Shown piece after piece: positions 21,321-40,286 of a stretch of DNA of 49,380 nt. Where the stretch lies: NCBI GenBank assembly GCA_025934335.1, contig JAICYG010000001.1:1-49380 (forward strand), written 5' to 3'. A program made the translations under genes and the position numbers. This stretch comes from Thermoleophilia bacterium. Lineage in GTDB: Bacteria; Actinomycetota; Thermoleophilia; Gaiellales; Gaiellaceae. Under the pieces are notes generated by a model. It ran no database searches and was not told the origin of the DNA. It saw only the letters and a list, made by a program, of their open reading frames with translations. Numbering within the stretch: the stretch's first letter is position 1; every line of letters starts with the position of its first letter.

Positions 21321-22096
<776 letters not shown>

Positions 22097-22110
22097 TGGG
22101 CGGAAGGGAC

Positions 22111-22140
22111 GTCGGAGGCGTCCCTGAGGACGCCTCCGAC
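22111..22140 (-). terminator. intercistronic perfect stem-loop between the SBP and ATPase genes (attenuator or mRNA-stabilising element)
   Basis: gtcggaggcgtcc-ctga-ggacgcctccgac forms a 13-bp perfect stem with a 4-nt loop, in the 61-nt gap after the SBP stop (22158). No U tract. Confidence 0.5.
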
Positions 22141-22157
22141 GCGTGACCTGCGAGATG

Positions 22158-23240: not shown

Positions 23241-23326
23241 GTTCTCTCCTTCGTTTGACGGGGGGTCAGTGTCAACCCCCAACGCTGTCGCATCCGGCGC
23301 CGCGAGTCAAGGGTAGGCTCGTATCC
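23241..23326. promoter_or_regulatory. divergent control region between the SBP gene and the isomerase-xylB genes
   Basis: TTGAC(23255-59)-N11-GTCAA(23271-75) inverted repeat. A TAGGCT (TANNNT) hexamer at 23314-19 sits 7 nt before ATG 23327, and there is no SD. Confidence 0.4.
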
Positions 23327-24331: not shown

Positions 24332-25695
24332 CGACGCTGATCGGCCTCGACGTCGGCACGTCCGGCGTCAAGGGGATCGCGCTCTCCGGCGACGGCGACG
24401 TGCTCGCCGTCGCCGAGGAGCCGTACCCGCTTTCCACTCCTCATCCGGGCTGGTCGGAGCAGGAGCCCGAGGACTGGTGGCGAGCGGCGCAGGCCGTACT
24501 CGCGCGGCTCCCGGAGGGGCCGGTCGGGCTCTCGGGGCAGATGCACGGGCTCGTCGTCCTGGACGAAGCGGAGCGCGTGCTGCGGCCGGCGATCCTCTGG
24601 AACGACCAGCGCACCGGCGCCGAGTGCGCCGAGATCGAGGAGCGCGTCGGGCTCGAGCGGCTGATCGAACTGACGGGCAACCGCGCGCTCACGGGCTTCA
24701 CCGCGCCGAAGCTCCTCTGGCTCCGCCGCCACGAGCCGGACACGTACGCGCGCATCCGCCATGTCCTGCTGCCGAAGGACTACGTGCGCCTGCGGCTGAC
24801 GGGCGACCAGGCGATCGACGCCGCCGACGCGTCCGGGACGCTCCTCTTCGACGTCGCGCACCGCCGCTGGTCGGACGAGGTGTGCGCGGCGCTCGAGGTG
24901 CCGCTCGAGTGGCTGCCGCCCGCGTTCGAGTCGACCGAGGTGGCGGGCGCCGGCGACCAGGCGGCGGCCGCGCTCGGCGTCGGCATCGCCGCACCGGGAC
25001 CGGTCTCGGTCGTGCTCGGAACCTCGGGCGTCGTCTTCGCCGCGTTGCCGTCCTACGAGCCCGATGCGCTCGCCCGCGTCCACACCTTCTGCCACGCGGT
25101 GCCCGGCACGTGGCACGCGATGGGCGTCATGCTCAGCGCCGCCGGCTCCGCGGCCTGGCTGCAGCGGGCGCTCGCCGCGCCGTACGCCGAGCTCGACGCC
25201 GAGGCGGAGCGCTGGGAGCCCGGCTGTGAGGGCCTGTCGTTCGCGCCGTACCTCGCCGGCGAGCGGACGCCGTACCCCGACCCGGATGCGCGCGGAGCGT
25301 TCACCGGGCTCTCGGTGCGCCACGACCGCGGCGCCCTGTGGCGCGCGATGCTCGAGGGCGTCGCCTTCGGCCTGCGCGACTCGCTCGAGCTGCTGCGCGA
25401 GCTCGGCGTGCGGCCCGAGGTGGGACGCGTCTCGGGCGGCGGGGCGCGCAGCGAGCTCTGGCTCCGCATCGTCGCTTCCGCGCTCGGGCTGCCGCTCGAG
25501 CGGACGGAGGTCGAGGAAGGCTCGGCGTTCGGCGCCGCGCTCCTCGCCGGCGTCCGCGCGGGCGTGTTCGCGGACGCGCGGGAGGCGGTCGACCGCTGCG
25601 TCCGCGCGCGCTCGGTGGTCGAGCCGGTCTGGGACTACGACGACGCGTACGCGCGCTTCCGCACCCTCTACCCCACGTTGAAGGAGATCTCATGA
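24328..25695 (+). CDS. xylB: xylulokinase (FGGY family)
   Basis: LIGLDVGTSGVKG, HPGWSEQEPEDWW and ILWNDQRT are typical of XylB. TTGA overlap with the isomerase stop. Confidence 0.8.
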   Translation: MTTLIGLDVGTSGVKGIALSGDGDVLAVAEEPYPLSTPHPGWSEQEPEDWWRAAQAVLARLPEGPVGLSGQMHGLVVLDEAERVLRPAILWNDQRTGAECAEIEERVGLERLIELTGNRALTGFTAPKLLWLRRHEPDTYARIRHVLLPKDYVRLRLTGDQAIDAADASGTLLFDVAHRRWSDEVCAALEVPLEWLPPAFESTEVAGAGDQAAAALGVGIAAPGPVSVVLGTSGVVFAALPSYEPDALARVHTFCHAVPGTWHAMGVMLSAAGSAAWLQRALAAPYAELDAEAERWEPGCEGLSFAPYLAGERTPYPDPDARGAFTGLSVRHDRGALWRAMLEGVAFGLRDSLELLRELGVRPEVGRVSGGGARSELWLRIVASALGLPLERTEVEEGSAFGAALLAGVRAGVFADAREAVDRCVRARSVVEPVWDYDDAYARFRTLYPTLKEIS

Positions 25696-25762
25696 GCGTA
25701 GGCTTGACGGAGCTCATCGAAGAGCGAAGGTGCCGGCTCTGCCGGCGCCGGGAGCGGGAATC

Positions 25763-26464
25763 ATGAGCCTCGAAGGCAAGACCGCTGTGATCACCGGGGC
25801 GAGCCGCGGGATCGGCGCCGCCGTCGCCCGGATGCTGCACGAGCGCGGCGTCAACCTCGGCCTCGCCTCGCGCTCCGGCGACGATCTCGGCCTCGAGAAC
25901 GTCGTCGCGCTGCCGTGCGACGTCCGCGACCTCGACGCGCTGACGCGCCTCTGCGACGCCACCGCCGAGCGCTTCGGCGGCATCGACATCGTCGTGCCGA
26001 ACGCCGGCGTCGGCGCCTACGGCTCGTTCCTCGACCTGTCGCTCGAGCACCTCGACGAGATGCTCGACGTGAACCTGAAGGGCACCGTCTACGCGATCCG
26101 CGCCGCGCTGCCGCACATGCTCGGCCGCGAGGGCGACGTGGTCACGCTCGCGTCGGAGGCGGGCCGCCGCGGCCTGCCGTACGAGGCCGTCTACTGCGCG
26201 TCGAAGTTCGGCCAGGTCGGGCTGACACGCGCGCTCGACCACGAGCTGCGCGAGCACGGCATCCGCTGCACGAACGTCTGCCCGGGTGGCGTCGCCACCG
26301 ACTTCGCGCTCGAGGAGGGCCGCGGCCGGACGCCCGACGTGCTGCCGGGGATGATGACGGCCGAGGACGTCGCCGAGGTGGTGGTCTTCGTGCTCGAGCG
26401 GCCCCGCCGCTTCCGCATCCTCGAGACGGCGCTGCGCCCGATGACCGAGCAGAGCTGGGGTTGA
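25763..26464 (+). CDS. SDR-family oxidoreductase
   Basis: ITGASRGIG and YCASKFG (YxxxK) motifs. ATG 25763 is preceded by GGGAGCGGGA. Confidence 0.85.
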   Translation: MSLEGKTAVITGASRGIGAAVARMLHERGVNLGLASRSGDDLGLENVVALPCDVRDLDALTRLCDATAERFGGIDIVVPNAGVGAYGSFLDLSLEHLDEMLDVNLKGTVYAIRAALPHMLGREGDVVTLASEAGRRGLPYEAVYCASKFGQVGLTRALDHELREHGIRCTNVCPGGVATDFALEEGRGRTPDVLPGMMTAEDVAEVVVFVLERPRRFRILETALRPMTEQSWG

Positions 26465-27378: not shown

Positions 27379-27443
27379 GTCCTGCGACAAGAGATCGCCG
27401 AAAGGGCGCGAATCAGGAAGAGGGCGCCGGTAGATTCGGTCTG

Positions 27444-28151
27444 ATGAAAAGGCTCCGAGTCGTGTCGTTGAACCTCTGGGGGCTCTCCCTGTGGCGCGAA
27501 GTGGCCGACCTTTGCGAGGCGGAATGCGTTGACGTTGCCTGCCTTCAGGAGGTCGATAGACACTACCGAGACAGAAGCCGGTGGGACGACGTGCCCGCGC
27601 GAGCTGCGGATGAGTTGGGCTGGGAGTGGGCTTATGCACCTGCGATCTTTCTGCCCGATACGACCGGGACGCGCCAGTACGGCAATGCGGTGCTCACGCG
27701 CCTTCCGCTACTCGGCCGACGCGAGCACGCACTGGCTCCCGAAGTGGAGTGGACGGAACCGGACGACAGCCTCACCGAGCCCCGGATTCTTCTCGAAGCC
27801 GTCATTGAGGCGCCGTGGGGTGGCCTTCTGCGGATCGGCTGCACTCATCTTGCTGATGTCGTCAATCCGGAGGACGAGTGGATCGGGCGCCGTCAAGTCG
27901 CCGACATCCTGCGCGTCGTGCGGGATCCCGCATGGACTCATGTGCCGACCGTCCTGACGGGCGACTTCAATGCGCGGGTCGGCTCCGAGTTACTGGGTGA
28001 TCTCGAGACATCCCTTCGTCTCGTGGCGGTTGAACAGCCGCATGTCGACCACCTCTTCATCTCGGATGGCCTCCGTGCCACAGAGGCTCGCCTACTTGGC
28101 CCGTGCGGGTCAGACCATCTGCCCCTTTTGTGCGACCTCGTTCCCGCCTAA
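27444..28151 (+). CDS. endonuclease/exonuclease/phosphatase (EEP) family protein
   Basis: VVSLNLWG, ACLQEV, GDFNA and the terminal SDHLPL motifs. No signal peptide. It is the first gene with the altered codon usage. Confidence 0.75.
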   Translation: MKRLRVVSLNLWGLSLWREVADLCEAECVDVACLQEVDRHYRDRSRWDDVPARAADELGWEWAYAPAIFLPDTTGTRQYGNAVLTRLPLLGRREHALAPEVEWTEPDDSLTEPRILLEAVIEAPWGGLLRIGCTHLADVVNPEDEWIGRRQVADILRVVRDPAWTHVPTVLTGDFNARVGSELLGDLETSLRLVAVEQPHVDHLFISDGLRATEARLLGPCGSDHLPLLCDLVPA

Positions 28152-28223
28152 AAGCCAGAGGAGCGCCGTTACCAGGTTTCCAGCTTTGCCTCGTCCCAGG
28201 AGCCAGTCTCGGCCGAAGGTGGG

Positions 28224-29108
28224 TCAGTCAAGGGCACTTTGCAGTTCGGAAGCCGTGGGCATCGCCGCGGAACAGGCGACGCGTGATGCGACGATCGCCC
28301 CCGCGATCGTGCCTCTTCGGACGGCTTCGACGAGCGATCGCCCCCTCAGGAGCGATTCGCCGAGCGCCGCCGCGAAGGCGTCCCCCGCGCCGAGCCCGTT
28401 GAGAACGGTCACAGCGCGGCCTTCGACATCGGTGCGCTGACCGTCCTCGAACACGGTCGCACCGCGCTCACCGCGCTTCAACACGAGGGTCGCCACCTCA
28501 GGAAGAGATGCCGCGGCAACCTCTTCCTCGTTGCCGATCACCACGTCCGCGGCGGCGACAGCATCACGAACAACGGCCGGGAACGCCGCCACGTCGTCCC
28601 AGAGATCAGGCCGCCAGTCGAGGTCGAAAATCGTCACCCCTCGGTGTGCGCGTAGCGCGCCGAGAGTCGTCTCGCGGCTCGGAGACTGCGCGAGCGCGGT
28701 CGCGGTGGCGTAGAGGATTCTCGCGTCGGCGACCTCCTCCTGGTCGAAGTCTTCCGTCTCGAGCCGCCAGTCAGGAGCCGTCGGCTTGCGATAGAAGGTG
28801 ATCGGAAAGCGATCAGGTGGCCAGATCTCGCAAAACGTGGGCGGTGTCTGCCAGTAGGGGTCGACGCCGAGGAACCGCACGTCCACTCCCTGCTCGGCAA
28901 GCCACCGGCGGATGAACACCCCGTGGCCGTCAGCACCGACTCGCGAGACGATGGCGGCGTCAACCCCGAGGCGCGCCAGACCGGTTGCCACATTCCCGGC
29001 GAATCCTCCGACGTAGCGTCTAAACGTCTCGACCTCCGACAACGGCGTCTCGAACTGCTCCGGGTACAGGTCGACCCCGACACGCCCGAGCACTGCTGCG
29101 TCGATCAA
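28224..29108 (-). CDS. iolC: PfkB kinase, 5-dehydro-2-deoxygluconokinase (IolC)-like
   Basis: VLGRVGVDLYP, TFRRYVGGFAGNVATG, ATALAQSPSRETTL, DLDWRPDLW, GAGDAF and the terminal AMPTASEL parallel B. subtilis IolC as I recall it. TTG 29108 sits 6 nt after GAGGAG; an alternative TTG is at 29177. Confidence 0.65.
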   Translation of the reverse strand: MIDAAVLGRVGVDLYPEQFETPLSEVETFRRYVGGFAGNVATGLARLGVDAAIVSRVGADGHGVFIRRWLAEQGVDVRFLGVDPYWQTPPTFCEIWPPDRFPITFYRKPTAPDWRLETEDFDQEEVADARILYATATALAQSPSRETTLGALRAHRGVTIFDLDWRPDLWDDVAAFPAVVRDAVAAADVVIGNEEEVAAASLPEVATLVLKRGERGATVFEDGQRTDVEGRAVTVLNGLGAGDAFAAALGESLLRGRSLVEAVRRGTIAGAIVASRVACSAAMPTASELQSALD

Positions 29109-29286
29109 AGGAAGCTCCTCTCGTCGCGTCGGGCTTCGCGACAACTCGTGCCCGCGGCCCAGGCGGCTTCGCCGCAACTGAACGCCTCGGTCTGCACACC
29201 ATGCGAACGCGCAATGATGAGAGCGCCAGGTTCTGCCTGGCTCGTCACGACGCGCGTGGCCGCCAGCGCCGCCGGCCTCAACCTCG

Positions 29287-30096
29287 TCATTGCGGAAATG
29301 CCCCCACGAAGGAGCATGCGGCGGCTCCGGCCCGTGAACCCTCCTCCATGCATTCACGGAGCGTCCGGCCTGCGAGCCGAACGGCCAAGAACGACCCGAT
29401 GAACGCGTCCCCAGCACCACAGGTATCGATGACGTCTACCGCCCGAAGTGCCGACATCTCTATGACCTCCCCCGCCTCGCTCGCCAAGCTCCCGCGCGAG
29501 CCGCGCAGCACGACCGCACAGCGGACGCCTGCCCGATGAAGCTGGCTCACCACGCGCCACGGCTCGTCTCTCGGAGAGGACACGAACGCGACGTCCAGGT
29601 CGGCAAGGGCCGTTCCCAGGCCATGGTCGGAGAAGTCGTACGAAAGGGTTGCGCCGGCGTCCGCTGCAATTCGCCAGAGCTCACTCAGGTGCCTCGGTAG
29701 CCGCGTCGCATGAATATGGCATGCGCCTACCGCAATTTCGGCTAGATCTGCAGGAGGCGAGAACGCATCGGTGATCGTGTACTCCTCGCGAACGAAGCGG
29801 CGCTCGCCGTCAGTGGCGAGAGCGATTTCCGTGACGGCCGTGGGAAGCGCGCCGTCGCGCACGACGCGGCTGATGTCGACGTTCTTCTTTCTCAACGTGG
29901 CCAGCACCCTGTCTCCCTCGACATCGCGTCCGACCGCCCCGAAATAGGCAGTCTCCACGCCTCGGGAAGCGAGGGCGACCGAAACGTTGGCGCAGCTGCC
30001 ACCTACGAGTTCACGGTCGACCGGTGGCAGATACCGATCAAGGCAGTTGTCTCCAATACAGATGACGGCCCGATGGCGACCATTCAGGGCTCGCAT
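29287..30096 (-). CDS. PfkB kinase, fructoselysine/fructosamine 6-kinase (FrlD)-like
   Basis: ICIGDNCLDRY, GGSCANVSVAL, VDISRV, YDFSD, LDVAFVS and VIDTCGAGDAFIGSFL resemble E. coli FrlD motifs as I recall them. 269 aa. Confidence 0.6.
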   Translation of the reverse strand: MRALNGRHRAVICIGDNCLDRYLPPVDRELVGGSCANVSVALASRGVETAYFGAVGRDVEGDRVLATLRKKNVDISRVVRDGALPTAVTEIALATDGERRFVREEYTITDAFSPPADLAEIAVGACHIHATRLPRHLSELWRIAADAGATLSYDFSDHGLGTALADLDVAFVSSPRDEPWRVVSQLHRAGVRCAVVLRGSRGSLASEAGEVIEMSALRAVDVIDTCGAGDAFIGSFLAVRLAGRTLRECMEEGSRAGAAACSFVGAFPQ

Positions 30097-30135
30097 TCAC
30101 ACCGCCGCGGCTCACGAGTAGGTAGAGAAGACAAC

Positions 30136-30942
30136 TCAGTCCGCGCGCGACGGTAGCGGTACAAGTTCCAGCCCCCGTCGCCGGAATATCGCAGCGCAGT
30201 CGAGACCGTGGCGCCTCAGGAACGGCACCGCGCGGAGAGCCGCTCCGGCGGTCGCCGGGACGTGCGCATCTGACCCGAGGCTCGCCCATGCCCCCTCACG
30301 GGCGATGCTCGCAATGAGCGCGGCGACGAGATCAGGGCGAACACTCATGTCGTTCCCGTTCACCTCGACGGCGACCCCGTGCCTCACCGCCGCGCGGGTG
30401 ATCTCGTCGAGCATCTTCGACAGGTTGGGCGGCTGGCCGGGAACGGAGAAGCCGAGCCGTACAGGGTGCGCAAGCACGTCATAGCGGCCGCTCGCGGCCG
30501 CGGCGACCTGGAGCTCTGCGTAGTCGCGCCATACGCCCGTCGGTTCATCCACGATGCGTGTCTCCTCGATCCCGGAATCATCGGACAGCACGTGAACTGA
30601 TCCGACGATCACGTCCCATGCCGGTGCGGACGGATCGACAACCTGTTCAAGGGCTCGCTCGTAGTCATCGTGGAGCGGACGCGCGTCAAGCTCGAGCCCC
30701 ACTCTCACCTCGATCGGGGCGACGCCTCGGGCATCGCTGATTGCGTCCAGATACGCCTGCCTTGCCAGGGGCTGGCCCTCGAGCGTCCACCGGCTCACCA
30801 GGTACGCGATCGTGTCGCGGACTTCGGACAGATGCTGCGCGTGCTCCGTGAAGGCGATGGTGTCGACGCCGTTCGCGGCGGCGGCGGCCGCCATCGTGCG
30901 CGCGTCCGACATGAGAAAGTGGTTGTGGTTGTCCGCGATCAG
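30136..30942 (-). CDS. PHP-domain phosphoesterase (HisJ/histidinol-phosphatase-like); non-canonical start inferred
   Basis: The first ATG is at 30912, but the in-frame upstream codons read LIADNHNHFL, which is the PHP D-x-H-x-H motif, followed by SD...GVDTIAFTEHA. Only CTG (30942), ATC or ACG are available before the upstream stop at 30964-66. Confidence 0.6.
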   Translation of the reverse strand: MIADNHNHFLMSDARTMAAAAAANGVDTIAFTEHAQHLSEVRDTIAYLVSRWTLEGQPLARQAYLDAISDARGVAPIEVRVGLELDARPLHDDYERALEQVVDPSAPAWDVIVGSVHVLSDDSGIEETRIVDEPTGVWRDYAELQVAAAASGRYDVLAHPVRLGFSVPGQPPNLSKMLDEITRAAVRHGVAVEVNGNDMSVRPDLVAALIASIAREGAWASLGSDAHVPATAGAALRAVPFLRRHGLDCAAIFRRRGLELVPLPSRAD

Positions 30943-32210
30943 CGTCTGATCCTCTGGGCCTCGTCATTCCGCCGGGCATGTGCTCCGTCGTTCAGCAGCA
31001 CCGCCCGCAGCGGCCTTGCTGGGTCAGCGAGATCGACCGATGACGGACATGAACCGCGCCCGATGGCGAGGACGGCAAGACGGATGTCCTTGGCAACGGA
31101 ATCGCCCTCTCCGATGGCACTCGCCGAGACGAGCCTGCCGTCGCTCGCGAGATCGAACCGGATCTCAACCCCGTCCTCTCGCACACGCAGGACTTCTCGC
31201 GCTCCCAGACTCGGAACCCCTGCGATCTGCAGCGTCAAGTCGTACTGATCCGACCAGAACCACGGAACAGCCGTGTAAGGCCGTGAGGCACCGAGAAGCG
31301 CAAGCGCGGCGGCATCGCCTTGGTCGACGGCGTTGCGCCACGACTCGAGACGCAGGCGGGCGCAATCGGCGAACGGCAAAGGAAACGAACAGCAGTCTCC
31401 TGCGGCGAAAATGGCCCCGTCGGACGTCGCGAATCGGCTGTCGACGACGATCCCCGCTTCTGTTCGAAGTCCCGCAGCGCCGGCGAGGTCCGTATTCGGT
31501 CGTGCGCCGACCGCGGCGATGACCACGTCGGCGACAAATGCGTCCGAGTCGTGTACCTCCACAGCGAAACGCCGCCCCGCGCGCCGTACGGCTGCGACCC
31601 TGGCACCACACCGGATATCCACCCGCTCGCGGCGGTGCCGTGCCGCGACGACCGAAGCTATCGACGCGGGCACCAATCGCTCGAGCACATGGAACGCCTG
31701 CTCGAGGACCGTGACGGAGCAACCGCGCAGGGCAGCGCACGCCGCGATCTCGAGGCCAAGGAATCCACCTCCGATGACCACAGCTGTCATTCCCGGCTGC
31801 AGCTGGTCCCTCAATCTGAGTACGTCTTGCCAGGTGCGAAGTCGAAGCGCATGTTCGCCGCCGGGGACGGAGAGGGACGAGGCTCTCGCGCCGGTTGCAA
31901 TCAACAGGCGGTCGTACGACATCTCTCGACGCCCTTCGAAGAGAACACGGCCGGCCCGACGGTCGATCGCCTCGATGCGGCCGTAGACGAACTCGATGCT
32001 CGCAGAGCGCAGCGACCCGAGGACGCCGCCGCCGGGCGGCCCGGCCGTGGCATCCCCAAGGGCCGCCTTTGAAAGTGGAGGGCGTTCGTACGGTGCGAAG
32101 GGATCTGAGTCCACAACGCTGATCGGCCCGTCGAAACCACAGGCGCGCAAGGCGAGAGCGGCTCGCGTTCCGCACTCTCCCCCGCCGATGACGACTATGC
32201 GACGCCCCAT
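30939..32210 (-). CDS. FAD/NAD(P)H-dependent ferredoxin reductase (pyridine nucleotide-disulfide oxidoreductase family)
   Basis: VVIGGGECGTRAA (FAD GxGxxG), YERPPLSK, VVIGGGFLGLEIAA (NAD site), and AAGDC. 423 aa from ATG 32210. Confidence 0.85.
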   Translation of the reverse strand: MGRRIVVIGGGECGTRAALALRACGFDGPISVVDSDPFAPYERPPLSKAALGDATAGPPGGGVLGSLRSASIEFVYGRIEAIDRRAGRVLFEGRREMSYDRLLIATGARASSLSVPGGEHALRLRTWQDVLRLRDQLQPGMTAVVIGGGFLGLEIAACAALRGCSVTVLEQAFHVLERLVPASIASVVAARHRRERVDIRCGARVAAVRRAGRRFAVEVHDSDAFVADVVIAAVGARPNTDLAGAAGLRTEAGIVVDSRFATSDGAIFAAGDCCSFPLPFADCARLRLESWRNAVDQGDAAALALLGASRPYTAVPWFWSDQYDLTLQIAGVPSLGAREVLRVREDGVEIRFDLASDGRLVSASAIGEGDSVAKDIRLAVLAIGRGSCPSSVDLADPARPLRAVLLNDGAHARRNDEAQRIRR

Positions 32211-32221
32211 TTCGGGTGGCG

Positions 32222-32542
32222 TCAGTCGATGAACACGTAGACGGTGCCGTCGTCGACACGTGTGCGATACGTGCGGAGATCGATGATGGCGGGCGCGCCC
32301 TTCGCTTCTCCGGTTCGATAGTCGAAGCGTCCGTTGTGTCTTGGGCACTCGATGATCGAGCCCATCACAAGCCCGTCGCACAAGCGTGCCCTCTCATGGG
32401 TGCAGTGTCCTTCGGTTGCATAGAAGCTCCCGTCGGGCGCGCGGTAGAGCGCGTAGTCGCCGCCGGCATGATCGAAGGGAACGACATCTTCGAACTCCAC
32501 GTCGTCAACAGCGCAAACTGCGATCCAGGTCGAGGCGCTCAC
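32222..32542 (-). CDS. Rieske [2Fe-2S] ferredoxin
   Basis: 106 aa with the C-x-H ... C-x2-H pattern (GHCTHE ... IECPRHNG). GTGA overlap with the upstream gene. Confidence 0.85.
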   Translation of the reverse strand: MSASTWIAVCAVDDVEFEDVVPFDHAGGDYALYRAPDGSFYATEGHCTHERARLCDGLVMGSIIECPRHNGRFDYRTGEAKGAPAIIDLRTYRTRVDDGTVYVFID

Positions 32543-33621
32543 CCGGAAAGCGCCGACGGAATCGACGGGGGGGTTCGGTACGGATGCGCCCCAAGAGGGA
32601 GTTCACGGTGGATGTAGTACGTCTGGTCGCGCAGCTGGCGGATCACCGCGGGGACGATCTCGCGATATGCGGCAAAGAGAGACGGAGAAGCTGGAACGAG
32701 GTCGTGCTTCACCGCCGCGTGCAAAGCCGGCAGCTTGTGGTATGGCACCAGCGGGAACATGTGGTGCTCGACGTGGTAGTTCATGTTGAGGTAGAGGAAC
32801 CGGAAGATCGGGTTCATCAAGACGGTGCGCGTGTTCAGTCGGTGGTCAAGGAAGTCTTCGCCCAAACCCGAGTGCTGAGTCAGGACAAAGAGTTGGCCGA
32901 GAAACGCACCGTAGAAGCGAGGCCCGAGAACAAGTAGGAACGGGAGAGGCGATGCGAACGCGATACACGCAGCGATCATTGCGGCGTAGATCGCGAGCCA
33001 CACGCGCGCCGTCCGGAAGACCTTCCTCAGTTCGGTCGCCGGCAGGAACGACGCTTCCTCGGACGTGATACGGCCCGTGGCGTGGTAGAGGACGCGGGCG
33101 AGCATCATCGGGACGTAGACCAGCCCGAAGAAGTTCGCGATGATGCGCACCAGCCGCGCCGGCCTCATTACATCGATCTCAGGGTCGCGACCGACGACCA
33201 GCGTGTCGGTGTGGTGGCGCGCGTGACTCCACCGCCAGACCGTCGGCTCGAGCATGTTCATGAAGGAGCCGAGTTGATACCCGAAGGCGTTCAACCAGCG
33301 CGTGCGGAACGCGGTGCCATGTCCGTACTCATGCCAGCGTGCATCCGCACCCGATCCGTACAGAAGACCGTAAACGGCGAAGCAAGGAATCGCCCGCCAT
33401 GTCCCGTAAGACAACACGCCGAGCGCGCCGGAACCGGTGAGCCCACCCAGCCACAGGACAAGGTCGATCAACGCTCGACGATCGGAACGCCCCATGAGCT
33501 CCCGAAGGCGTGGACGGGGAATCGCACTACGAAACCAATCCGCGCCGGCAAGACCACCCTCGACGGCCCTCTCGCCTCGTTTGCCGTCGAGGCGGTACTC
33601 GTCGAGATGCTCTCTACCCAT
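32539..33621 (-). CDS. membrane fatty-acid-desaturase-superfamily di-iron enzyme (three His boxes)
   Basis: HEYGH, HARHH and YHVEHHMFPLVPYHKLP His boxes with flanking TM segments. ATG 33621 overlaps the upstream stop by 8 nt; an alternative ATG is at 33639. Confidence 0.8.
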   Translation of the reverse strand: MGREHLDEYRLDGKRGERAVEGGLAGADWFRSAIPRPRLRELMGRSDRRALIDLVLWLGGLTGSGALGVLSYGTWRAIPCFAVYGLLYGSGADARWHEYGHGTAFRTRWLNAFGYQLGSFMNMLEPTVWRWSHARHHTDTLVVGRDPEIDVMRPARLVRIIANFFGLVYVPMMLARVLYHATGRITSEEASFLPATELRKVFRTARVWLAIYAAMIAACIAFASPLPFLLVLGPRFYGAFLGQLFVLTQHSGLGEDFLDHRLNTRTVLMNPIFRFLYLNMNYHVEHHMFPLVPYHKLPALHAAVKHDLVPASPSLFAAYREIVPAVIRQLRDQTYYIHRELPLGAHPYRTPPSIPSALSG

Positions 33622-34729
33622 CAGGCCCCCCGGCGGCAAGGGCTCCTACGGTGGGCTCCGATGCCGCACGCTCCGCGAGCTCCTTCAAGAGGCGGATGTC
33701 CTCCAGGCCCTCCCTCGCATTCGTCCGCGGCGGTTCACCCGTGACGACACAGCTGTGGAACTCCTCGAGCTCTCGTCGAAACGCCTCGTCGTACGACACC
33801 GTAAAGGTCTGTTCCCAGGAGACGGTCCCGTCGCCGGCCTGCAGAACGAGACCAGTTGGAGCATTTCGAAGGAACGGTGACGGAAACCGCAACGCGAGTC
33901 GGGAGGAGGCCGTGATGACCTCGAAGTGCTGCTCGTAGCGGACAAGATCGGCGGTCGCCGTCCATGTGCTGACGGCGTCGGCATCTGTCGGGAGCCCGAA
34001 AACCCCCACGACGCCGAGACCGTCGGCGCGGATCGCAGCGTGTTTGACGCTCGGGCGGCCGCACAAGCCGGCGAGCAGATTGACATCGTGAATCATGGAG
34101 TCGATGAGTGCCGTCCGATAGAACCGTCGGATTGCCTCGTCGGCGGACGGCAGAGCCTCGGCGACGAGCTTGTCGTCGTCGGCACGCAACTCCGCCAGGA
34201 CTGCGGGGTCGACGTCGGTGGCCGGGAGCACATGATGGTGGGCGAGATACGGATCCTGCGGACTCTCGAACGTCGCCGTGCGCGCGAGGAGCGGTTCTCC
34301 GAGACCTTGAAGCTCCGCGAGCGCGCGCTCGTACGCCGGGTCGTATCGCTTGTGGTAGCCCACCATCAATGTCACACCGGCACGTTCAGCGGCTGCGATC
34401 ATCTCCTCGCCTTCGCGTGGCGTAACGCACATTGGCTTCTCGACAAACACACCAATGCCAGCCTCGGCCGCAGCACACGCCACCGGAGCATGCGATCCAG
34501 ACGACAGGACGAGAAGCGCATCGAGCGGCTCGGCGAACATGTCGTCGGGATGAGTGTGGACTCGTGGGACCTCGTAGGCCTCACCGAGGCGCCGGACGAG
34601 TTCCTCTGACAAGTCACAGAGCGCCACGATTTCGAACCGGTCGTTCATCTGGCGTAGATGCGGAAGATGCATGACCTGCGCGATCACACCGCAACCGAGG
34701 ACGCCGACGCGCAGCCGCCTACCTTTCAT
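33614..34729 (-). CDS. Gfo/Idh/MocA-family oxidoreductase
   Basis: LRVGVLGCGVIAQVMHLPHL and VFVEKPM motifs. 371 aa from ATG 34729, which overlaps the upstream gene by 11 nt. Confidence 0.85.
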   Translation of the reverse strand: MKGRRLRVGVLGCGVIAQVMHLPHLRQMNDRFEIVALCDLSEELVRRLGEAYEVPRVHTHPDDMFAEPLDALLVLSSGSHAPVACAAAEAGIGVFVEKPMCVTPREGEEMIAAAERAGVTLMVGYHKRYDPAYERALAELQGLGEPLLARTATFESPQDPYLAHHHVLPATDVDPAVLAELRADDDKLVAEALPSADEAIRRFYRTALIDSMIHDVNLLAGLCGRPSVKHAAIRADGLGVVGVFGLPTDADAVSTWTATADLVRYEQHFEVITASSRLALRFPSPFLRNAPTGLVLQAGDGTVSWEQTFTVSYDEAFRRELEEFHSCVVTGEPPRTNAREGLEDIRLLKELAERAASEPTVGALAAGGPDG

Positions 34730-35717
34730 GTCGTGCCTTCTGACCGTGCGACGTCGCAGTTCGCAGAAGCGCGACAGCACGCTCGATGGAACCGAACGGG
34801 TCTGCGGCCGCGTCTTCCCACTCGATCGAAAGAGGTCCGTCGTACCCGACTTCCGCGAGCGCAACGGAGAATGCCGCCCACCACGCGACGTCGTGTCCGT
34901 CGCCGGCAGTGGCGTACCGGTACGACCGGTCGGCCGGCGTCGAGACCCCCTCCTGATCTCCCTCGAGCAAGCCGTTGGTCGCCGTCGCCTCCTCGTCGAG
35001 CACAACGTCTTTGGCATGGGCGTAGCGCACGAGCGGCCCGAGTGCGCGGATCGCACGCAACGGGTCCATCTGCTGCCAGAAAAGGTGCGACGGGTCGAGA
35101 TTGACGCCTAGCTGGCCGGCGGCGTCTCCAAAGGCGTTGCGTAGGCGGAGAAACCCACGCGGCGTGAACACGGTTTGACCGGGATCGAGCTCAAGGCAAA
35201 TCGCGACGCCTGGTGCACGTTCCGACGCAAACTCGAGCAGCCCTTCCCAGTAGGGAACCAATCGTTCACGCCACTGCCATGCGACGCGACCGTGATCCTG
35301 CGGGAGCCACTCCACGGGAAGGAACGCTGGTCGGACTCGATCGTCAGGACCTGCGACCGCGCACCCGGACATGCAGACGACTCGCTCGACACCGAGGGCG
35401 TCAGCGGCGACGAGCGTCCGCCTAAGGGTTCGATCGTCGGCACTGCCACCGTCGATGACATCCGGGAAGAGCTGGTTCCCCGAGCAGTTGAGCGCCGCCA
35501 GCTCCACTCCAGCGTTCCGCGCGTCCCGCAAGAGGGATTCGACGCCGCGATCGTTTCCGAGCTCGTCGAGGTCGAGGTGAGGAGCTGACGAGAAGCCACC
35601 CGTACCGAGCTCGACCTGGCCGATTCCATGCTCGGCGGCCCACGCGAACGCCGCGGGACGTGGAAGCTGACGAAGCCCGTCGGTGAAGAGCCCTATCGGC
35701 TGCGGCACCATGCCCAT
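34719..35717 (-). CDS. xylose-isomerase-like TIM-barrel protein (sugar phosphate isomerase/epimerase, IolE/LgdB-type)
   Basis: GIGQVELG, ICLELDP, NLDPSHLFWQQMDP, YAHAKD and GYDGPLSIEWED follow the typical AP-endonuclease-2/XI TIM pattern. TGATG junction with the LmbE gene. Confidence 0.8.
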   Translation of the reverse strand: MGMVPQPIGLFTDGLRQLPRPAAFAWAAEHGIGQVELGTGGFSSAPHLDLDELGNDRGVESLLRDARNAGVELAALNCSGNQLFPDVIDGGSADDRTLRRTLVAADALGVERVVCMSGCAVAGPDDRVRPAFLPVEWLPQDHGRVAWQWRERLVPYWEGLLEFASERAPGVAICLELDPGQTVFTPRGFLRLRNAFGDAAGQLGVNLDPSHLFWQQMDPLRAIRALGPLVRYAHAKDVVLDEEATATNGLLEGDQEGVSTPADRSYRYATAGDGHDVAWWAAFSVALAEVGYDGPLSIEWEDAAADPFGSIERAVALLRTATSHGQKARHER

Positions 35718-36409
35718 CAGTAGGCACCCGGGCCTTCGAGCAACAACACCAGGCGGCGGATGCCTGCGTCCGGCGCAGGCCATGTTCCGCAGCCGCGGAA
35801 GGCCTCTGCATACCCGCAGCCACGCTGACCACCGCGCAGACGCGCGAGCGTGTCCGTCAATTCGACAAGGCTCTGCCCGTGGAGCAGCGTGAGCTGCGAC
35901 TCGTGCGCTCGTACCATTGCTCGCCTGATCTCGATCGCGTCATCGATGTCGAGCCATACGTGCGGCTCGAAGTCGAGCCCTTGCTCGCTGTCCATGAAGA
36001 CGAGGTCAATCGTCCGTTCCAGCGGTTGCTGGTCGGCTCCTCCCGCCGCGGCAGCCGCGATCCGCACATCCAGCGCCAGCGCCGCGGCCGCACGATGATC
36101 GACGTGATAGTCGTTCGGTGAGTGTGTGATCAGCAGGTTCACACGTAACGTTCGGAGGAGCGCGATGAGGGTCCCGCGTGGATCGTGCTCCCCCAGGTCG
36201 TGAACTCCGCTTAGTCCACCTAGTTGTGCCGCCCGTCTCGCTTCAGCCAGTCGAATCGCGCGCGTCTGATCGCCCGACTCACCGGAAATCCCCGTTTCAC
36301 CGCTAGTCAACAGGCCCACGTGGACCGGCAGCCCGCGACGGGCAAGCCGAGCGAGCGTCCCTCCGCAGGCACCCTCGACGTCGTCAGGATGCGCGCCGAG
36401 CGCCAGCAC
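35717..36409 (-). CDS. LmbE/PIG-L-family zinc N-deacetylase
   Basis: LALGAHPDDVEG and YHVDH (HxDH) motifs. GTG 36409 sits 6 nt after GAGGAG. The longer ATG 36511 start would bury a 13-bp hairpin and overlap the SBP gene. Confidence 0.8.
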   Translation of the reverse strand: MLALGAHPDDVEGACGGTLARLARRGLPVHVGLLTSGETGISGESGDQTRAIRLAEARRAAQLGGLSGVHDLGEHDPRGTLIALLRTLRVNLLITHSPNDYHVDHRAAAALALDVRIAAAAAGGADQQPLERTIDLVFMDSEQGLDFEPHVWLDIDDAIEIRRAMVRAHESQLTLLHGQSLVELTDTLARLRGGQRGCGYAEAFRGCGTWPAPDAGIRRLVLLLEGPGAY

Positions 36410-36456
36410 TACCGTCTCCTCAACTGACCATGCAGTCAGTTTCCTCTCCTTTCTGT

Positions 36457-36486
36457 CTGCGGGGCCGCCAAAGGGCGGCCCCGCAG
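36457..36486 (-). terminator. GC stem-loop immediately downstream of the SBP gene (terminator or mRNA-stabilising hairpin)
   Basis: ctgcggggccgcc-aaag-ggcggccccgcag forms a 13-bp perfect stem with a 4-nt loop, 9 nt after the SBP stop on the minus strand. No U tract. Confidence 0.55.
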
Positions 36487-36494
36487 GTCGGCTC

Positions 36495-38135
36495 TCACGA
36501 CTTCGGGGCAAGCAAGCTGAGGTTCACACGGTTGTAGATCGGGTGGAACACGAACCCGGTGACCTTGTTCGAGATGACGAAGACGTCGTTCGTGTTGAAG
36601 AGCGGCACCCACGGAGCCCAGCGCCGCATGATCGTTTCGTCCAGCTTCTGGTAAGCGGCGAACCGCGCAGGCCCGGTCAGCGAGAACGCACGCTGGAACA
36701 TCGGAATCGCAGACTTGTCGTCGAAACGTGCCTTGTGGCCGGGTTGATCCGCGAGTCGTGGATCGAGCAACGGCGTAAAGAAGTCCTCGGGATCGGGGTA
36801 GTCCTGAGTCCAACCCTGAACCATTCCCATCGGGACGCGATTCGACCGCTTGTCCTGCACCGGATCAAGCGTTGAAGACGGCCCGATGTGGAGGGTGATC
36901 CTGATGCCGATCTTGGCGAGTTCCTGCTGGACGACCTCGCCCACCTTCACGTCACCGTCGTAGCAGTCGACCCGGAGACTCACCGGCGTGGCGACGCCCG
37001 ACTGGCTCATCAGTTGCCGAGCTTTGGCGAGGTTGCCACCGAGCGGGTATGCGTGATAGTCCCGCCAGCCCGCCATCGTCGGAGGCAAGATCTGGTCAGT
37101 CGGACGGGCGACCCCGAACCCGCCGACGATCTTGGCGATCTGGTTCCGGTCGATCGCGTAGTTGACCGCCTGACGCACCTTGACGTTGTCGAACGGGGGA
37201 ACGTCGTTGTTCATCCAGATGTAATGGATCCCGGCCTCGGCATACGAGAACACCCGGCCCTTGAGCGACGGGTCGCGGAGCGCCTGATTCGCAGGCCCCG
37301 CGAGGAGTGGCTCGATGTAGGTGTCGATCTCGCCTGCCTTGACCTTGAGCAGCGCCTGCTGCGGGTCAACGCCGATCGGCATCTTGATCTCATCGGCCTT
37401 GCCGCGCGACCCGAGGAGCTTCGCGTTGTAGCTCGGGTTGCGCACGAGATCGAGCTCACGAGCGGGTGTGTAGCTCTTGATCATGTAAGGCCCGGTCGAA
37501 GGCAACGACCCGTCCTCGATCGGTTTCACCGCTGTTCCGACCGGAACCGGGCAGAGCCATTTCATCGATACGCGCTGAGGCAGCGAGCCGCTCCGACCGG
37601 TCAGCTTGAACGTGAGGCTCGTCGACGTTGCGACGATCCCTGATACGTGCTTCGTCTTTCCCTTCTCGAATGCGTTCACGCCAACGATGTCGGTGAAGAA
37701 GTACGGCGCGGGGCCGGCCAGCTTCGGATCGAGAGCGCGCTCGAACGTGTACTTCATGTCGGCGGTCGTGATCGGCTTCCCGTTCGAGAAAGTCGCCCCC
37801 GAGCGCCAGCGGAACGTCCAGGACTTTCCGCCATTCGACGCCGTCGGAAGCGCTGCTAAACCGGGCACGAGCTTCGTGCCGGCTTGGCCCGAGGCGTCGG
37901 GGTAGCGGAGAAGCGTGGTGCACGTCGCGTCTGCGATCGTCCACGTCGTCGCGTAGTACCAGAGGGCCGGATCCATGTGGTCGATGCTGGAGGTGCCCAG
38001 TGCGACCGTCACCGTTCCGCCGGCTGCCCGGCTGTCATGCGCGGGCCTGGCAACGGCGGTGCTGGCCCACGCGATGACAGCGACCATGGTCAGAAGCGCC
38101 GCAAGCGCCCCTGACCGGATCGTGCGACGTGACAT
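36495..38135 (-). CDS. ABC transporter substrate-binding protein, family 5 (Opp/Dpp/oligosaccharide type)
   Basis: ATG 38135 follows AAGGAG. Signal peptide MSRRTIRSGALAALLTMVAVIAWASTAVA. The length (546 aa) and sequence are typical of the SBP_bac_5 family. Confidence 0.8.
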   Translation of the reverse strand: MSRRTIRSGALAALLTMVAVIAWASTAVARPAHDSRAAGGTVTVALGTSSIDHMDPALWYYATTWTIADATCTTLLRYPDASGQAGTKLVPGLAALPTASNGGKSWTFRWRSGATFSNGKPITTADMKYTFERALDPKLAGPAPYFFTDIVGVNAFEKGKTKHVSGIVATSTSLTFKLTGRSGSLPQRVSMKWLCPVPVGTAVKPIEDGSLPSTGPYMIKSYTPARELDLVRNPSYNAKLLGSRGKADEIKMPIGVDPQQALLKVKAGEIDTYIEPLLAGPANQALRDPSLKGRVFSYAEAGIHYIWMNNDVPPFDNVKVRQAVNYAIDRNQIAKIVGGFGVARPTDQILPPTMAGWRDYHAYPLGGNLAKARQLMSQSGVATPVSLRVDCYDGDVKVGEVVQQELAKIGIRITLHIGPSSTLDPVQDKRSNRVPMGMVQGWTQDYPDPEDFFTPLLDPRLADQPGHKARFDDKSAIPMFQRAFSLTGPARFAAYQKLDETIMRRWAPWVPLFNTNDVFVISNKVTGFVFHPIYNRVNLSLLAPKS

Positions 38136-38157
38136 TCTGCCGTCTCCTTTCTGTCGC

Positions 38158-38180
38158 GCGGCCGGGCTGTTCCCGGCCGC
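38158..38180 (-). other. intercistronic stem-loop upstream of the SBP gene
   Basis: gcggccggg-ctgtt-cccggccgc forms a 9-bp perfect stem in the 65-nt gap between the permease stop (38201) and the SBP start (38135). Confidence 0.45.
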
Positions 38181-38200
38181 ATTTCTCCGCTCGCGAGCGC

Positions 38201-39208
38201 TCATAAGGGCGCCTCGCGAATGCGGGGGTCGAGAAGGCCGTGGACGATGTCCACGATGGAGTTTGCGAGTACGGCGACGATCGCGGCAAAGGCGATGACG
38301 CCTGCGGTGAGTGGGTAGTCAAGGCTGCGGATTGCCTGGAGGCCTACGTAGCCGAGACCTGGGAGACCGAAGACCTTCTCCACGAAGAACGTGCCTGCGA
38401 GGGCGACCCCGACGTCGGCGCCGAGCAGTGTCACGATCACGGGTGCCGTGTTCGGCTGGACATGCCGCAGCAGCACGCGCCGTGTTGACGCTCCCTTCGC
38501 TCGAGCTGTTCGCACGTACCCCTGCGCAAGCTGCTCGAGCGTGAGCGAACGGAAGTAGCGCGCGTAGATTCCGCCGGTTCCCAGCGCGAACACGAGCCAC
38601 GGAAGCAGTAGGTGGTGGGCCCATGCCAGCGGGTGCTCGCGCAGGTTGACGTATCCATCGATGGGGAAGATGTGAAACGCCGAGCCGAGCGGCACCCCGA
38701 GGAACGTGCCCTGCGTTGGCTCGTAGGCAAAGAAATAGGACGCCATCGGCGCCAGCCAGAAGACCGGTATCGAGACGCCGAGCAGTGCGATGACGATGCT
38801 GAGTCGATCCGGAAGCGACCGCGGACGCAGCGCGCCGATCGTCCCGACGGCGAATCCGATCAGCAGCCAGAGGACGGCACCGCCGATGACGACGGAGGCG
38901 GTAGTCCCCGCGGCCGGCAGCACAATGTCTGTGACAGGACGCCGCTGCAGGTACGAGTACCCGAAGTCGAGGTGAAGAACGCCCCAGAGGAAACGCGCGT
39001 ACTGAACGTAGTACGGGCGGTCGGTGCCGAGCTCGTGCGCGACCCGCGCCACCTCCTCCGGAGAGGCGGCCTTACCTGCAATGCGAGTCGCGGGATTCGC
39101 GCCGGTCTTGGCGGCGAGCAGGTAGAAGAGCGCCCACGTCAGGAACGTGATCAGAACGAACTGCAGAGCCATCGCCGCTAACCGCCGAAGCAGGAATGCG
39201 CCGGTCAT
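38201..39208 (-). CDS. ABC transporter permease (DppB/OppB-like)
   Basis: N-terminus FLLRRLAAMALQFVLITFLTWALFYL and six TM segments. ATGA overlap with the upstream permease. Confidence 0.85.
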   Translation of the reverse strand: MTGAFLLRRLAAMALQFVLITFLTWALFYLLAAKTGANPATRIAGKAASPEEVARVAHELGTDRPYYVQYARFLWGVLHLDFGYSYLQRRPVTDIVLPAAGTTASVVIGGAVLWLLIGFAVGTIGALRPRSLPDRLSIVIALLGVSIPVFWLAPMASYFFAYEPTQGTFLGVPLGSAFHIFPIDGYVNLREHPLAWAHHLLLPWLVFALGTGGIYARYFRSLTLEQLAQGYVRTARAKGASTRRVLLRHVQPNTAPVIVTLLGADVGVALAGTFFVEKVFGLPGLGYVGLQAIRSLDYPLTAGVIAFAAIVAVLANSIVDIVHGLLDPRIREAPL

Positions 39209-40197
39209 GTAGCGTCTCCGTACAGCGCCTCACGAACACCGTCGCCGAACACGTTGAACGCGAGCATCGTCAGGACCAGCGCGAAACCAGGCACGATCGC
39301 GAGGAAAGGCGCCGTGAAAAAGAGCCCCGAGTCAATGGAGTCGCTGAGCATCTGACCCCAGCTAGCTGTCGGCGGAGGAACGCCGACGCCGAGGTAACTG
39401 AGCCCGGCTTCGAACATGATGTTCCCGGCGATCACTGTCGTCGCGTACACCACGAGCGGGGCAGTCACCTGTGGCAGCACGTGGCGGCGCAGTATGCGCG
39501 CGTCGGTCGCACCAATCGACCGTGCCGCCTCCACCAGCGTCGACGAGCGGATCCGCAGCACCTCGCCGCGCACGATCCGTGCCGGGTAGTACCAGGTGAA
39601 CAGCGCGATGATGACAAGAACGTTCACGAGCCCGGGGCCGAGCACCACCGCGACCCCAATCGCGAGGAGGAGCGCCGGAAACGCCATCCCCGCCTCGACG
39701 GCGCGCGAGATGACGGCATCCGTCAAGCCGCCGAACCATCCCGCGGCAAGACCGAAGATCACTCCGGCGAGGAGCGAGATGCCGGTCGCACCAACGGCGA
39801 CGATAAGCGACACACGCGCGCCGTAGAGCAAACGGACCAGCATGTCGCGACCGATCGTGTCGGCACCGAGAACGAAGACATCTCCGTGCGGATTTGGGGT
39901 CACTGAGTCCGCCTTGAAGGCGCGGCCGAGTGGACCGATCGGCACGCCGTCCGCGCCAACCGCCGCGTCGATCTGCTCGTTCGGCCCATGGCCGGTCCAG
40001 TGCGCGGCTATCGGTGCGCCGGCACCGGCCGCGAGTACCAGAGCGACGAGGAACCCAAGCGCAGCCATGCTCACGCGATCCGAGCGGAGGCGCCGCCAGA
40101 AGAGTGTCCACGGACTCTTCGCGTGTCCAGCCGCCTCGGCGGCACCGGACTCAGGCCGAGCAACGTCGTCCGGGTGCGCTGCGCCCGGAGCCGTCAC
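39205..40197 (-). CDS. ABC transporter permease (DppC/OppC-like); start uncertain
   Basis: SPWTLFWRRLRSDRVSMAALGFLVAL is an OppC_N-type N-terminus, followed by the permease core. GTG 40197 is the first start after the upstream stop (40287). The ORF-track start at 40368 would overlap the upstream gene by 82 nt. Confidence 0.75.
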   Translation of the reverse strand: MTAPGAAHPDDVARPESGAAEAAGHAKSPWTLFWRRLRSDRVSMAALGFLVALVLAAGAGAPIAAHWTGHGPNEQIDAAVGADGVPIGPLGRAFKADSVTPNPHGDVFVLGADTIGRDMLVRLLYGARVSLIVAVGATGISLLAGVIFGLAAGWFGGLTDAVISRAVEAGMAFPALLLAIGVAVVLGPGLVNVLVIIALFTWYYPARIVRGEVLRIRSSTLVEAARSIGATDARILRRHVLPQVTAPLVVYATTVIAGNIMFEAGLSYLGVGVPPPTASWGQMLSDSIDSGLFFTAPFLAIVPGFALVLTMLAFNVFGDGVREALYGDAT

Positions 40198-40286
40198 GCG
40201 TGCGCTCGCGCGCGTGGAGGGCGCGGGGCCCGACGGTCTCGAAGCGAGTTGCTGCCTGTCGACCGCCGGACCACGCCCCCGCTGCT

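Follow-up and report, generated by a model that had tools for sequence, protein, structure and literature searches.

A MocDEF-type three-component oxygenase in a rare sugar- and cyclitol-type gene island, with a cytochrome P450 in its place in related operons

The closest described relatives of the system analysed here are MocD, MocE and MocF of the rhizobial moc loci of Sinorhizobium meliloti L5-30 and Rhizobium leguminosarum bv. viciae (Bahar et al. 1998, 2000, as cited in PMC10107442, PMC13434037 and PMC5132102). The rhizopine moc locus is known from S. meliloti L5-30, R. pisi and Phyllobacterium (PMC10107442), and mocDEF-like clusters linked to LacI occur in rhizobia, Pseudomonas syringae and others, where their function is described as unresolved (PMC3538637, PMC5132102, PMC5789663, PMC13434037); the role of MocD-type proteins outside rhizopine genetics was described in the same way as late as 2026 (PMC13434037). 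In this study a comparable gene trio, coding for a membrane-bound di-iron oxygenase, a Rieske ferredoxin and a flavin-dependent reductase, was investigated in a 49,380-nt stretch of DNA from a Thermoleophilia bacterium (contig JAICYG010000001.1, positions 1 to 49,380; hereafter the window). By homology and gene order the trio belongs to the MocD/MocE/MocF three-component oxygenase family, and it probably, though by no means surely, acts as a monooxygenase that hydroxylates a C-H bond beside a heteroatom of a polar intermediate, most likely for O-dealkylation. The MocDEF system and the chemistry of its superfamily are already known; what is new is the setting in a rare gene island and the exchange of MocDEF for a cytochrome P450 in related operons.

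All three genes lie on the minus strand. The gene for the MocD-like integral-membrane oxygenase (32539-33621) begins at the ATG at 33621 and encodes 360 amino acids, a start backed by the conserved N-terminus in alignment A2. Its TGA stop shares four nucleotides, GTGA, with the GTG start of the gene for a soluble Rieske [2Fe-2S] ferredoxin of 106 amino acids (32222-32542; GGGTGAGCG), and a gap of exactly 11 nt (CGCCACCCGAA) separates the ferredoxin stop from the ATG of a gene for a MocF-like FAD/NAD(P)H ferredoxin reductase of 423 amino acids (30939-32210). On the other side, the oxygenase ATG overlaps by 8 nt the end of an upstream gene for a Gfo/Idh/MocA-family dehydrogenase (33614-34726, minus strand; PF01408). 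The open reading frames, histidine (His) boxes, GTGA coupling and 11-nt gap reported in a first-pass annotation of the window all hold on direct reading, and the codon overlaps on both sides of the oxygenase agree with its description of the trio as embedded in a carbohydrate operon. In comparisons with two metagenomic relatives, the ratio of nonsynonymous to synonymous substitution rates (dN/dS) was 0.08-0.23 across the three genes and 0.12-0.13 for the oxygenase; all three are under purifying selection.

The oxygenase matches the FA_desaturase profile (PF00487) over residues 75-312 with 121.6 bits (cutoff 29.7; E 6e-35). This is its sole Pfam match at E≤0.001, with no match to Lipid_DES or FA_hydroxylase. 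The His boxes HEYGH (residues 97-101), HARHH (133-137) and HVEHH (283-287) are accompanied by hydrophobic stretches at about residues 50-70, 156-179 and 201-247, and the eight box histidines as well as H250, H260 and H301 are invariant among 90 homologues. Since a sequence search of the PDB gave no match at E≤1, the fold was judged from an AlphaFold2 model (predicted local distance difference score 82.5, predicted template-modelling (TM) score 0.84). Foldseek matched this model to the fatty-acid-desaturase-like chains 8xqw_M and 8xks_K at E 1e-5 and to the AlkB-AlkG structure 8f6t at E 4e-3, with TM scores of the matches of about 0.45-0.53. Profile, His boxes and fold all place the protein in the membrane fatty acid desaturase/hydroxylase superfamily.

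The ferredoxin matches the Rieske domain (PF00355) at E 2e-18, carries the motif CTH-x15-CPRH and scores 139.7 bits against TIGR02377 (MocE_fam_FeS, the MocE family 2Fe-2S ferredoxin), thus passing the curated cutoff of 136.15. The reductase combines Pyr_redox_2 (E 4e-61) and Reductase_C (E 4e-16) domains in Pfam and carries two GxGxxG motifs; its top NCBIfam matches are the ferredoxin reductases HcaD and AndAa, and it is 44-52% identical to MocF of rhizobial and related loci. A tblastn search against plasmids returned 287 records, mostly rhizobial, with an oxygenase identity of 52-55% over 95% of the length; some of these matches are annotated 'mocD: hydrocarbon oxygenase' and are followed by mocE and mocF. 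The MocD references were the annotated MocD of R. etli CIAT 652 and the D gene of a locus linked to MocR, MocB and MocA, the L5-30 sequence not being among them. On a plasmid of Phyllobacterium zundukense the D-E-F cluster adjoins a MocR-type pyridoxal-phosphate-dependent regulator, a sugar-binding protein and a Gfo/Idh/MocA gene, and it is regarded as a rhizopine moc-type locus because this gene content matches the description in PMC10107442. The closest functionally assigned relatives of the oxygenase are thus MocD proteins, at about 370 bits, and the homology over nearly the full length of MocD is joined by an adjoining MocE-family Rieske protein and a downstream MocF-type reductase. This kinship had been missed in the first-pass annotation, which took a sugar or cyclitol substrate to be new chemistry for the superfamily; since the founding MocDEF demethylates a rhizobial amino-cyclitol, oxidation of a sugar-like substrate is not new to it.

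With rhizobial MocDEF the window shares the three proteins and their order, an oxygenase identity to rhizobial MocD of 51-55%, the level of reductase identity given above, the Pyr_redox_2 plus Reductase_C architecture, and the company of a Gfo/Idh/MocA dehydrogenase and a triosephosphate isomerase (TIM)-barrel enzyme in a cyclitol-type catabolic setting. It differs in that the genome is of actinobacterial type whereas the moc loci lie on rhizobial plasmids, in that MocR, a MocB-type binding protein, PanB-like and PurU genes are absent from the window island, and in the presence of extra LmbE, PHP, endonuclease/exonuclease/phosphatase (EEP), PfkB, SIS, ROK and SBP_5 genes. The LacI-linked clusters resemble it in holding a D-E-F module within a sugar- or inositol-type cluster that lacks the rest of the moc locus, but they carry LacI, transporters of the Peripla_BP_4 sugar type and often a PanB-like gene, whereas the window has ROK, SBP_5, amino-sugar and phosphoesterase genes. 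AlkB-AlkG and XylM/XylA are alike in fold class, in the His-box di-iron site and in having a dedicated soluble iron-sulfur carrier and reductase; the carrier in the window is, however, a Rieske ferredoxin and not a rubredoxin or a plant-type ferredoxin domain, and its context is one of polar carbohydrates rather than hydrocarbons.

Conservation of the partners was surveyed in 80 loci from species-representative genomes, among which the best oxygenase identity was 61%, together with loci from plasmids and assemblies. Partner counts by tblastn cover the 85 loci in which sufficient sequence lies downstream. A MocE homologue lies directly downstream of MocD on the same strand in 80 of these, a MocF homologue lies downstream in at least 59 (a lower bound, as the filter for fragmented high-scoring segment pairs under-called MocF in actinobacterial loci; locus L011, scored at first as lacking a reductase, does carry one), and the D-E-F order is retained in most. 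Natural fusions join the same partners: seven of ten long relatives are FA_desaturase-Rieske fusions, and the top-scoring of the long relatives, P0259 (760 amino acids), is a triple fusion of FA_desaturase, Rieske and an FNR-type FAD/NAD reductase and hence a candidate for a self-sufficient enzyme. Single-chain proteins with a MocD-like part and a C-terminal Rieske domain were noted in P0259, P0262, P0265, P0267, P0271, P0276, P0284 and P0341. By analogy with the chemistry of the family, NAD(P)H would reduce the FAD reductase, which would pass electrons to the soluble Rieske ferredoxin; the ferredoxin would feed them singly to the di-iron centre held by the oxygenase His boxes, where O2 would be activated and a C-H bond hydroxylated. 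This proposed path is supported by the fusions, since they join MocD, Rieske and reductase in the manner of a 'Rosetta stone'.

These results bear out the proposal of the first-pass annotation that the trio is an oxygenase with its own electron-transfer chain and not a lipid housekeeping desaturase. A membrane-lipid enzyme acting on fatty acids, sphingolipids or carotenoids, and standing in a sugar operon by chance, could be invoked on the strength of the Pfam placement and of weak NCBIfam matches to DesB and CrtR. These matches reach 28.3 and 19.0 bits, however, against cutoffs of 500 and 475, and the match to GntB reaches 23.0 bits against 380; no DES-type NCBIfam model was matched. With such scores for the desaturase, hydroxylase and carotenoid models, and with neither Lipid_DES nor FA_hydroxylase in Pfam, the likeness to sphingolipid delta-4 desaturases suggested earlier found no support. 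The codon overlap with the Gfo/Idh/MocA gene, the dedicated Rieske ferredoxin and its retention or even fusion among the relatives also stand against a lipid role, as do the lack of lipid genes nearby and the fact that orthologous operons hold a P450 in this slot (see below), and such a role is considered very improbable.

MocD-type oxygenases are numerous: an exhaustive HMMER scan of 1.84 billion cluster representatives found 276 clusters at 50% identity (E≤1e-30), and a separate search found at least 6,773 clusters at 90% identity (E≤1e-10), almost all annotated merely as 'fatty acid desaturase family protein'. The MocD family, judged from its gene neighbourhoods, probably has several substrate classes. 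Among mostly proteobacterial MocDEF loci, a gene for a PanB-like 3-methyl-2-oxobutanoate hydroxymethyltransferase follows mocF or mocE in 28 of 89 (for example L001 11670-12479, L008 12741-14482 and L009 11445-12281), sometimes together with the formyl-tetrahydrofolate deformylase PurU, and these proteins may handle the one-carbon (C1) unit freed by demethylation. MocR is present in only one of the 89 surveyed loci. Two actinobacterial neighbourhoods of non-sugar type were also recorded: a MocD-MocE homologue of about 60% identity lies near genes for an amidohydrolase, an acyl-CoA ligase/GNAT fusion, a luciferase-like monooxygenase and an aldo-keto reductase in L011 (4683-13788), and another MocD-MocE homologue of about 60% lies near B12-radical-S-adenosylmethionine and methyltransferase genes in L014 (7892-16079).

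Closer relatives of the oxygenase (83-94%) were found solely on short metagenomic or Logan contigs. On three of these (L005-L007) the MocDEF operon recurs at 82-94% nucleotide identity, and in all three the EEP gene adjoins it as in the window. L005, at 82% nucleotide identity, has cleanly lost the gene for the reductase, the greater part of the SIS gene and the gene for the IolC-like kinase; the site of the reductase loss (L005 11248-11381) corresponds to window positions 30944-32155. MocD and MocE of L005 have dN/dS of 0.13 and 0.09 and are still under purifying selection, and since they have stayed so in spite of the loss of MocF, the dedicated reductase seems to be dispensable. The losses in L005, and the sister operons described next, which entirely lack MocDEF, might be taken as signs that the trio was inserted recently and has no functional tie to the operon, or that it is a passenger in decay. 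Such a history has very little to recommend it: even in L005, MocD and MocE keep a dN/dS of 0.08-0.13, the genes overlap their neighbours by codons, their GC content at third codon positions (GC3) is like that of the rest of the island, and the vacated slot is not empty but holds another monooxygenase.

The sister operons were reached by way of homologues of the TIM-barrel and PHP proteins of the window. Three metagenome contigs from the Joint Genome Institute (L090, L172 and L173) carry orthologous operons whose shared genes are 54-80% identical to those of the window. In L090, the values are 75% for OppC, 80% for OppB, 78% for SBP_5, 59% for LmbE, 56% for the TIM barrel, 70% for Gfo, 58% for EEP, 54% for PHP and 63% for ROK; the ROK regulator is kept in all of the sister operons. 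Between Gfo and PHP, in the place of MocDEF, all three have an in-line EEP gene followed by a cytochrome P450 gene (both within L090 12043-13888, L172 8141-9989 and L173 2870-4718), and none has MocDEF, the PhoX-like gene, the SIS gene or either of the two PfkB genes. Because a P450 non-orthologously displaces MocDEF in otherwise orthologous operons, gene content indicates that mono-oxygenation of a polar intermediate is a built-in step of the pathway, which MocDEF would supply in the window. The P450 itself has only generic CYP107/109-like matches and offers no clue to the substrate.

That generic character also fits a different target, a hydrophobic part of the imported compound (an alkyl, acyl or N-substituent), such as an aglycone, which the oxygenase would hydroxylate or desaturate in the manner of AlkB or XylM while leaving the sugar or cyclitol untouched. 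The superfamily classically acts on hydrophobic substrates, AlkB-AlkG stands among the closest solved folds, peptides or opine-like compounds are frequent ligands of SBP_5 transporters, and actinobacterial homologues adjoin acyl-CoA ligase and GNAT genes. On the other hand, the closest assigned relatives are MocD proteins, far above the scores of the desaturase and hydroxylase models; the island has no genes for beta-oxidation, alcohol dehydrogenase or aldehyde dehydrogenase, and all its other genes are of sugar, cyclitol or phosphate type. Attack on a hydrophobic substituent is regarded as unlikely.

These other genes share an unusual composition. The window has a GC content of 70-75%, with a stretch of about 65% at about 28-44 kb, and GC3 is 0.70-0.82 in every gene between about 27.4 and 44.4 kb, the trio included, as against 0.88-0.96 in the flanking genes. 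This region of about 17 kb (27400-44400) is a compositionally foreign island. No tRNA, integrase, transposase or convincing flanking repeats were found to mark it, and promoter and terminator scans did not rise above shuffled expectation. On the minus strand the operon runs in the order PhoX-like protein, two permeases, SBP_5 binding protein, LmbE, TIM barrel, Gfo, MocD, MocE, MocF, PHP, FrlD-like kinase and IolC-like kinase. The first-pass annotation had characterised the neighbours of the trio as sugar-type rather than lipid genes, and the Pfam and NCBIfam assignments agree.

The first gene of the operon (40287-42053) encodes a secreted PhoX-like protein of 588 amino acids, with a marginal PF05787 match (26.6 bits, cutoff 24) and no NCBIfam match; it has an 89% identical orthologue in L005 and is found solely in operons that carry MocDEF (window and L005). 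An ABC (ATP-binding cassette) importer (36495-40368) follows, made up of Opp-type permeases at 39205-40368 (start uncertain) and 38201-39208 and an SBP_bac_5 protein at 36495-38204 (PF00496, E 3e-66); Pfam labels of the L005 orthologues also served to assign these genes. As neither the island nor the sister operons contain a gene for the ATPase of this importer, its ATPases must be encoded elsewhere. Next come an LmbE/PIG-L-family N-deacetylase (35717-36511; PF02585), whose nearest structures are TT1542, diacetylchitobiose deacetylase and BshB1, with MshB weaker, and a xylose-isomerase-like TIM barrel of IolE/IolI type (34719-35717; PF01261), which belongs to a small family (669 proteins at E≤1e-20) and weakly matches the 2-hydroxy-3-keto-glucal hydratase 8ro4 in the PDB. 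The inositol-dehydrogenase-like Gfo protein between this gene and the oxygenase has IolG as its top NCBIfam match, under the cutoff, and DgpA as its top PDB match.

Directly downstream of the oxygenase slot lies a PHP-domain, histidinol-phosphatase-like phosphoesterase (30136-30912; PF02811). Only 18 proteins among 5.8 billion belong to its family at E≤1e-30, so that PHP effectively marks the operon and the operon must be rare. Two PfkB kinases complete the minus-strand series. One (29287-30096; PF00294) is fructoselysine-6-kinase-like, with FrlD as its top NCBIfam match at 120.7 bits, under the cutoff of 247; the other (28224-29138, start approximate) is IolC-like and scores 291.9 bits against TIGR04382 (myo_inos_iolC_N, cutoff 300). 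On the plus strand, an EEP-family protein (27450-28151; PF03372) is convergent with the operon end, and a two-SIS-domain NagB-II/GlmS-isomerase-like enzyme (42136-43191; PF01380) and a ROK/NagC-like regulator (43194-44357; PF00480) are divergent from its start. The SIS enzyme scores 197 bits against NagB_SO3506 and 185 bits against GlmS, both under the cutoff. A pathway of the FrlB/FrlC/FrlD (Amadori) type, which the FrlD-like kinase brings to mind, was not adopted, the SIS protein scoring 197 bits for NagB-II against 26 for FrlB.

The island landed amid carbohydrate-catabolic genes. The high-GC3 flank at 13115-15228 and 21317-26464 contains two Gfo/Idh/MocA genes, an ABC ATPase, a Peripla_BP_4 binding protein, a TIM-barrel gene, an FGGY kinase and a short-chain dehydrogenase/reductase. 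Two further genes of the window are unrelated to the trio: a 1,332-amino-acid FG-GAP/ASPIC-repeat protein with a weak RnfD-like N-terminal match (16060-20058) and a CopC-CopD-YtkA fusion protein (45629-47602).

The gene content of the island and of related loci was used to narrow the substrate class. Relatives of the TIM-barrel protein at about 40-47% identity adjoin IolD, IolB and IolC, the Gfo protein is 44% identical to one in an iolCDB cluster, and the IolC-like kinase is 60% identical to the kinase of the iolC-iolD-iolB cluster in L091; among sufficiently long loci with TIM-barrel homologues, IolD adjoins in 11 of 42 and a MocA-like Gfo in 17 of 42. Since relatives of all three proteins sit in iolC-iolD-iolB clusters, gene context points to a cyclitol moiety. 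Homology points likewise to an N-acetyl-amino-sugar moiety, because the LmbE protein is nearest to deacetylases of N-acetylglucosamine (GlcNAc) glycosides and is accompanied by a NagB-II-like enzyme and a NagC-like regulator, and the three phosphoesterase-type proteins (PhoX-like, EEP and PHP) suggest a phosphorylated precursor. The compound taken up would thus most likely be an amino-sugar/cyclitol conjugate that is N-acetylated and possibly phosphorylated.

The founding substrate of the family was also considered, and a reading of the island as a rhizopine locus was rejected. The window Gfo protein is 29% identical to rhizopine-type MocA over the N-terminal domain only, the TIM-barrel protein has no significant similarity to the rhizobial TIM 'epimerase', and neither is an orthologue of its rhizobial counterpart; homologues of the MocR regulator and the MocB sugar-binding protein are absent from the window island, which has ROK and SBP_5 instead. 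The substrate of the trio is very probably not rhizopine. A search of the literature for a bacterial O-methyl-inositol (pinitol) demethylase of the MocD family found none. Erwinia is reported to use pinitol without demethylation (PMC9788770), and a pinitol-rich exudate induces mocDEF homologues, a correlative observation (PMC5789663).

Taken together, these data favour the view given at the outset, in which the trio would supply one co-translated, integral step in a catabolic operon, itself gained by horizontal transfer, for a polar compound brought in from outside the cell. The SBP_5 ABC importer would take up the compound, the LmbE enzyme would remove its N-acetyl group, and the inositol-dehydrogenase-like and IolE-like pair would oxidise the cyclitol; the PHP and EEP proteins may handle phosphoesters, the IolC-like and FrlD-like kinases would phosphorylate, the NagB-II-like enzyme may deaminate or isomerise the sugar-phosphate, and the NagC-like ROK protein would regulate the operon. 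Hydroxylation by MocDEF of a carbon adjacent to an ether oxygen (or to an amine nitrogen) would lead to oxidative O-dealkylation, exposing a cyclitol or sugar that the downstream enzymes could use, in parallel with the demethylation of 3-O-methyl-scyllo-inosamine attributed to rhizobial MocDEF. Several points weigh against this assignment. The evidence cited for MocD in the literature found is genetic, so that the reference reaction itself rests on genetics and homology. Genes for handling formaldehyde or C1 units are lacking from the island, in contrast to the PanB-like genes or PurU of other MocDEF loci. The Gfo and TIM-barrel proteins are not orthologues of the rhizopine enzymes, and the SBP_5 transporter and ROK regulator are unlike those of moc loci. 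Actinobacterial homologues at about 60% identity occupy non-sugar contexts, and the substrate is therefore not transferable by homology at such a distance. Finally, a P450 in the slot of MocDEF would fit hydroxylation of a hydrophobic substituent just as well.

No glycoside hydrolase is encoded in the island, which nevertheless combines cyclitol-type (Gfo, TIM barrel and IolC-like) with amino-sugar-type (LmbE, NagB-II-like, ROK and FrlD-like) genes. This absence invites the idea that the oxygenase, or the P450 of the sister operons, takes the place of a glycosidase by hydroxylating the carbon attached to the glycosidic or ether oxygen of a glucosamine (GlcN)- or GlcNAc-alpha-cyclitol pseudo-disaccharide, for example the GlcN-inositol core of mycothiol or of glycosylphosphatidylinositol (GPI); the resulting hemiketal would collapse into an inosose and a free amino sugar. 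Several LmbE-family deacetylases act on GlcNAc that is alpha-linked to a cyclitol, among them MshB, PIG-L and 2'-N-acetylparomamine deacetylase, and the hydroxylation would be of the same alpha-to-ether-oxygen type as in rhizopine demethylation. Such a reaction is without precedent, however, the LmbE protein of the window resembles BshB1 and chitobiose deacetylases more than it does MshB or Mca, and the Gfo and TIM-barrel pair could itself cleave glycosides oxidatively, as its weak PDB similarity to DgpA and the 3-keto-glucal hydratase might suggest; replacement of a glycosidase is accordingly thought quite unlikely. The more specific proposal that the whole island is a salvage route for GlcNAc- or GlcN-alpha-inositol-type conjugates (the mycothiol core, GPI or glycosyl-inositol-phosphate head groups), with MocDEF or the P450 cleaving the alpha-glucosaminyl-cyclitol ether bond oxidatively, is speculative and seems improbable. 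If true, an oxygenase would do the work of a glycosidase on a hydrolysis-resistant bond, and the island would be the first catabolic route for such compounds.

For O-dealkylation by MocDEF, a functional parallel is found among P450s, which are proven carbohydrate O-demethylases in sugar-utilisation loci (PMC6292453). Like the P450 6-O-methyl-D-galactose demethylase of porphyran utilisation (PMC6292453), MocDEF would be a monooxygenase in a sugar-catabolic operon that removes a blocking group, although it is of an unrelated protein family; the P450 of the sister operons has no demonstrable kinship to the algal-sugar demethylases. The replacement of MocDEF by a P450 is the strongest genomic argument so far for MocDEF as a monooxygenase of soluble substrates. 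The locus extends the MocD family to a high-GC, actinomycete-like genome, in which the genes of a rare operon constrain the substrate to an amino-sugar/cyclitol conjugate, and the single-chain MocD-Rieske(-reductase) fusions could make the family biochemically tractable.

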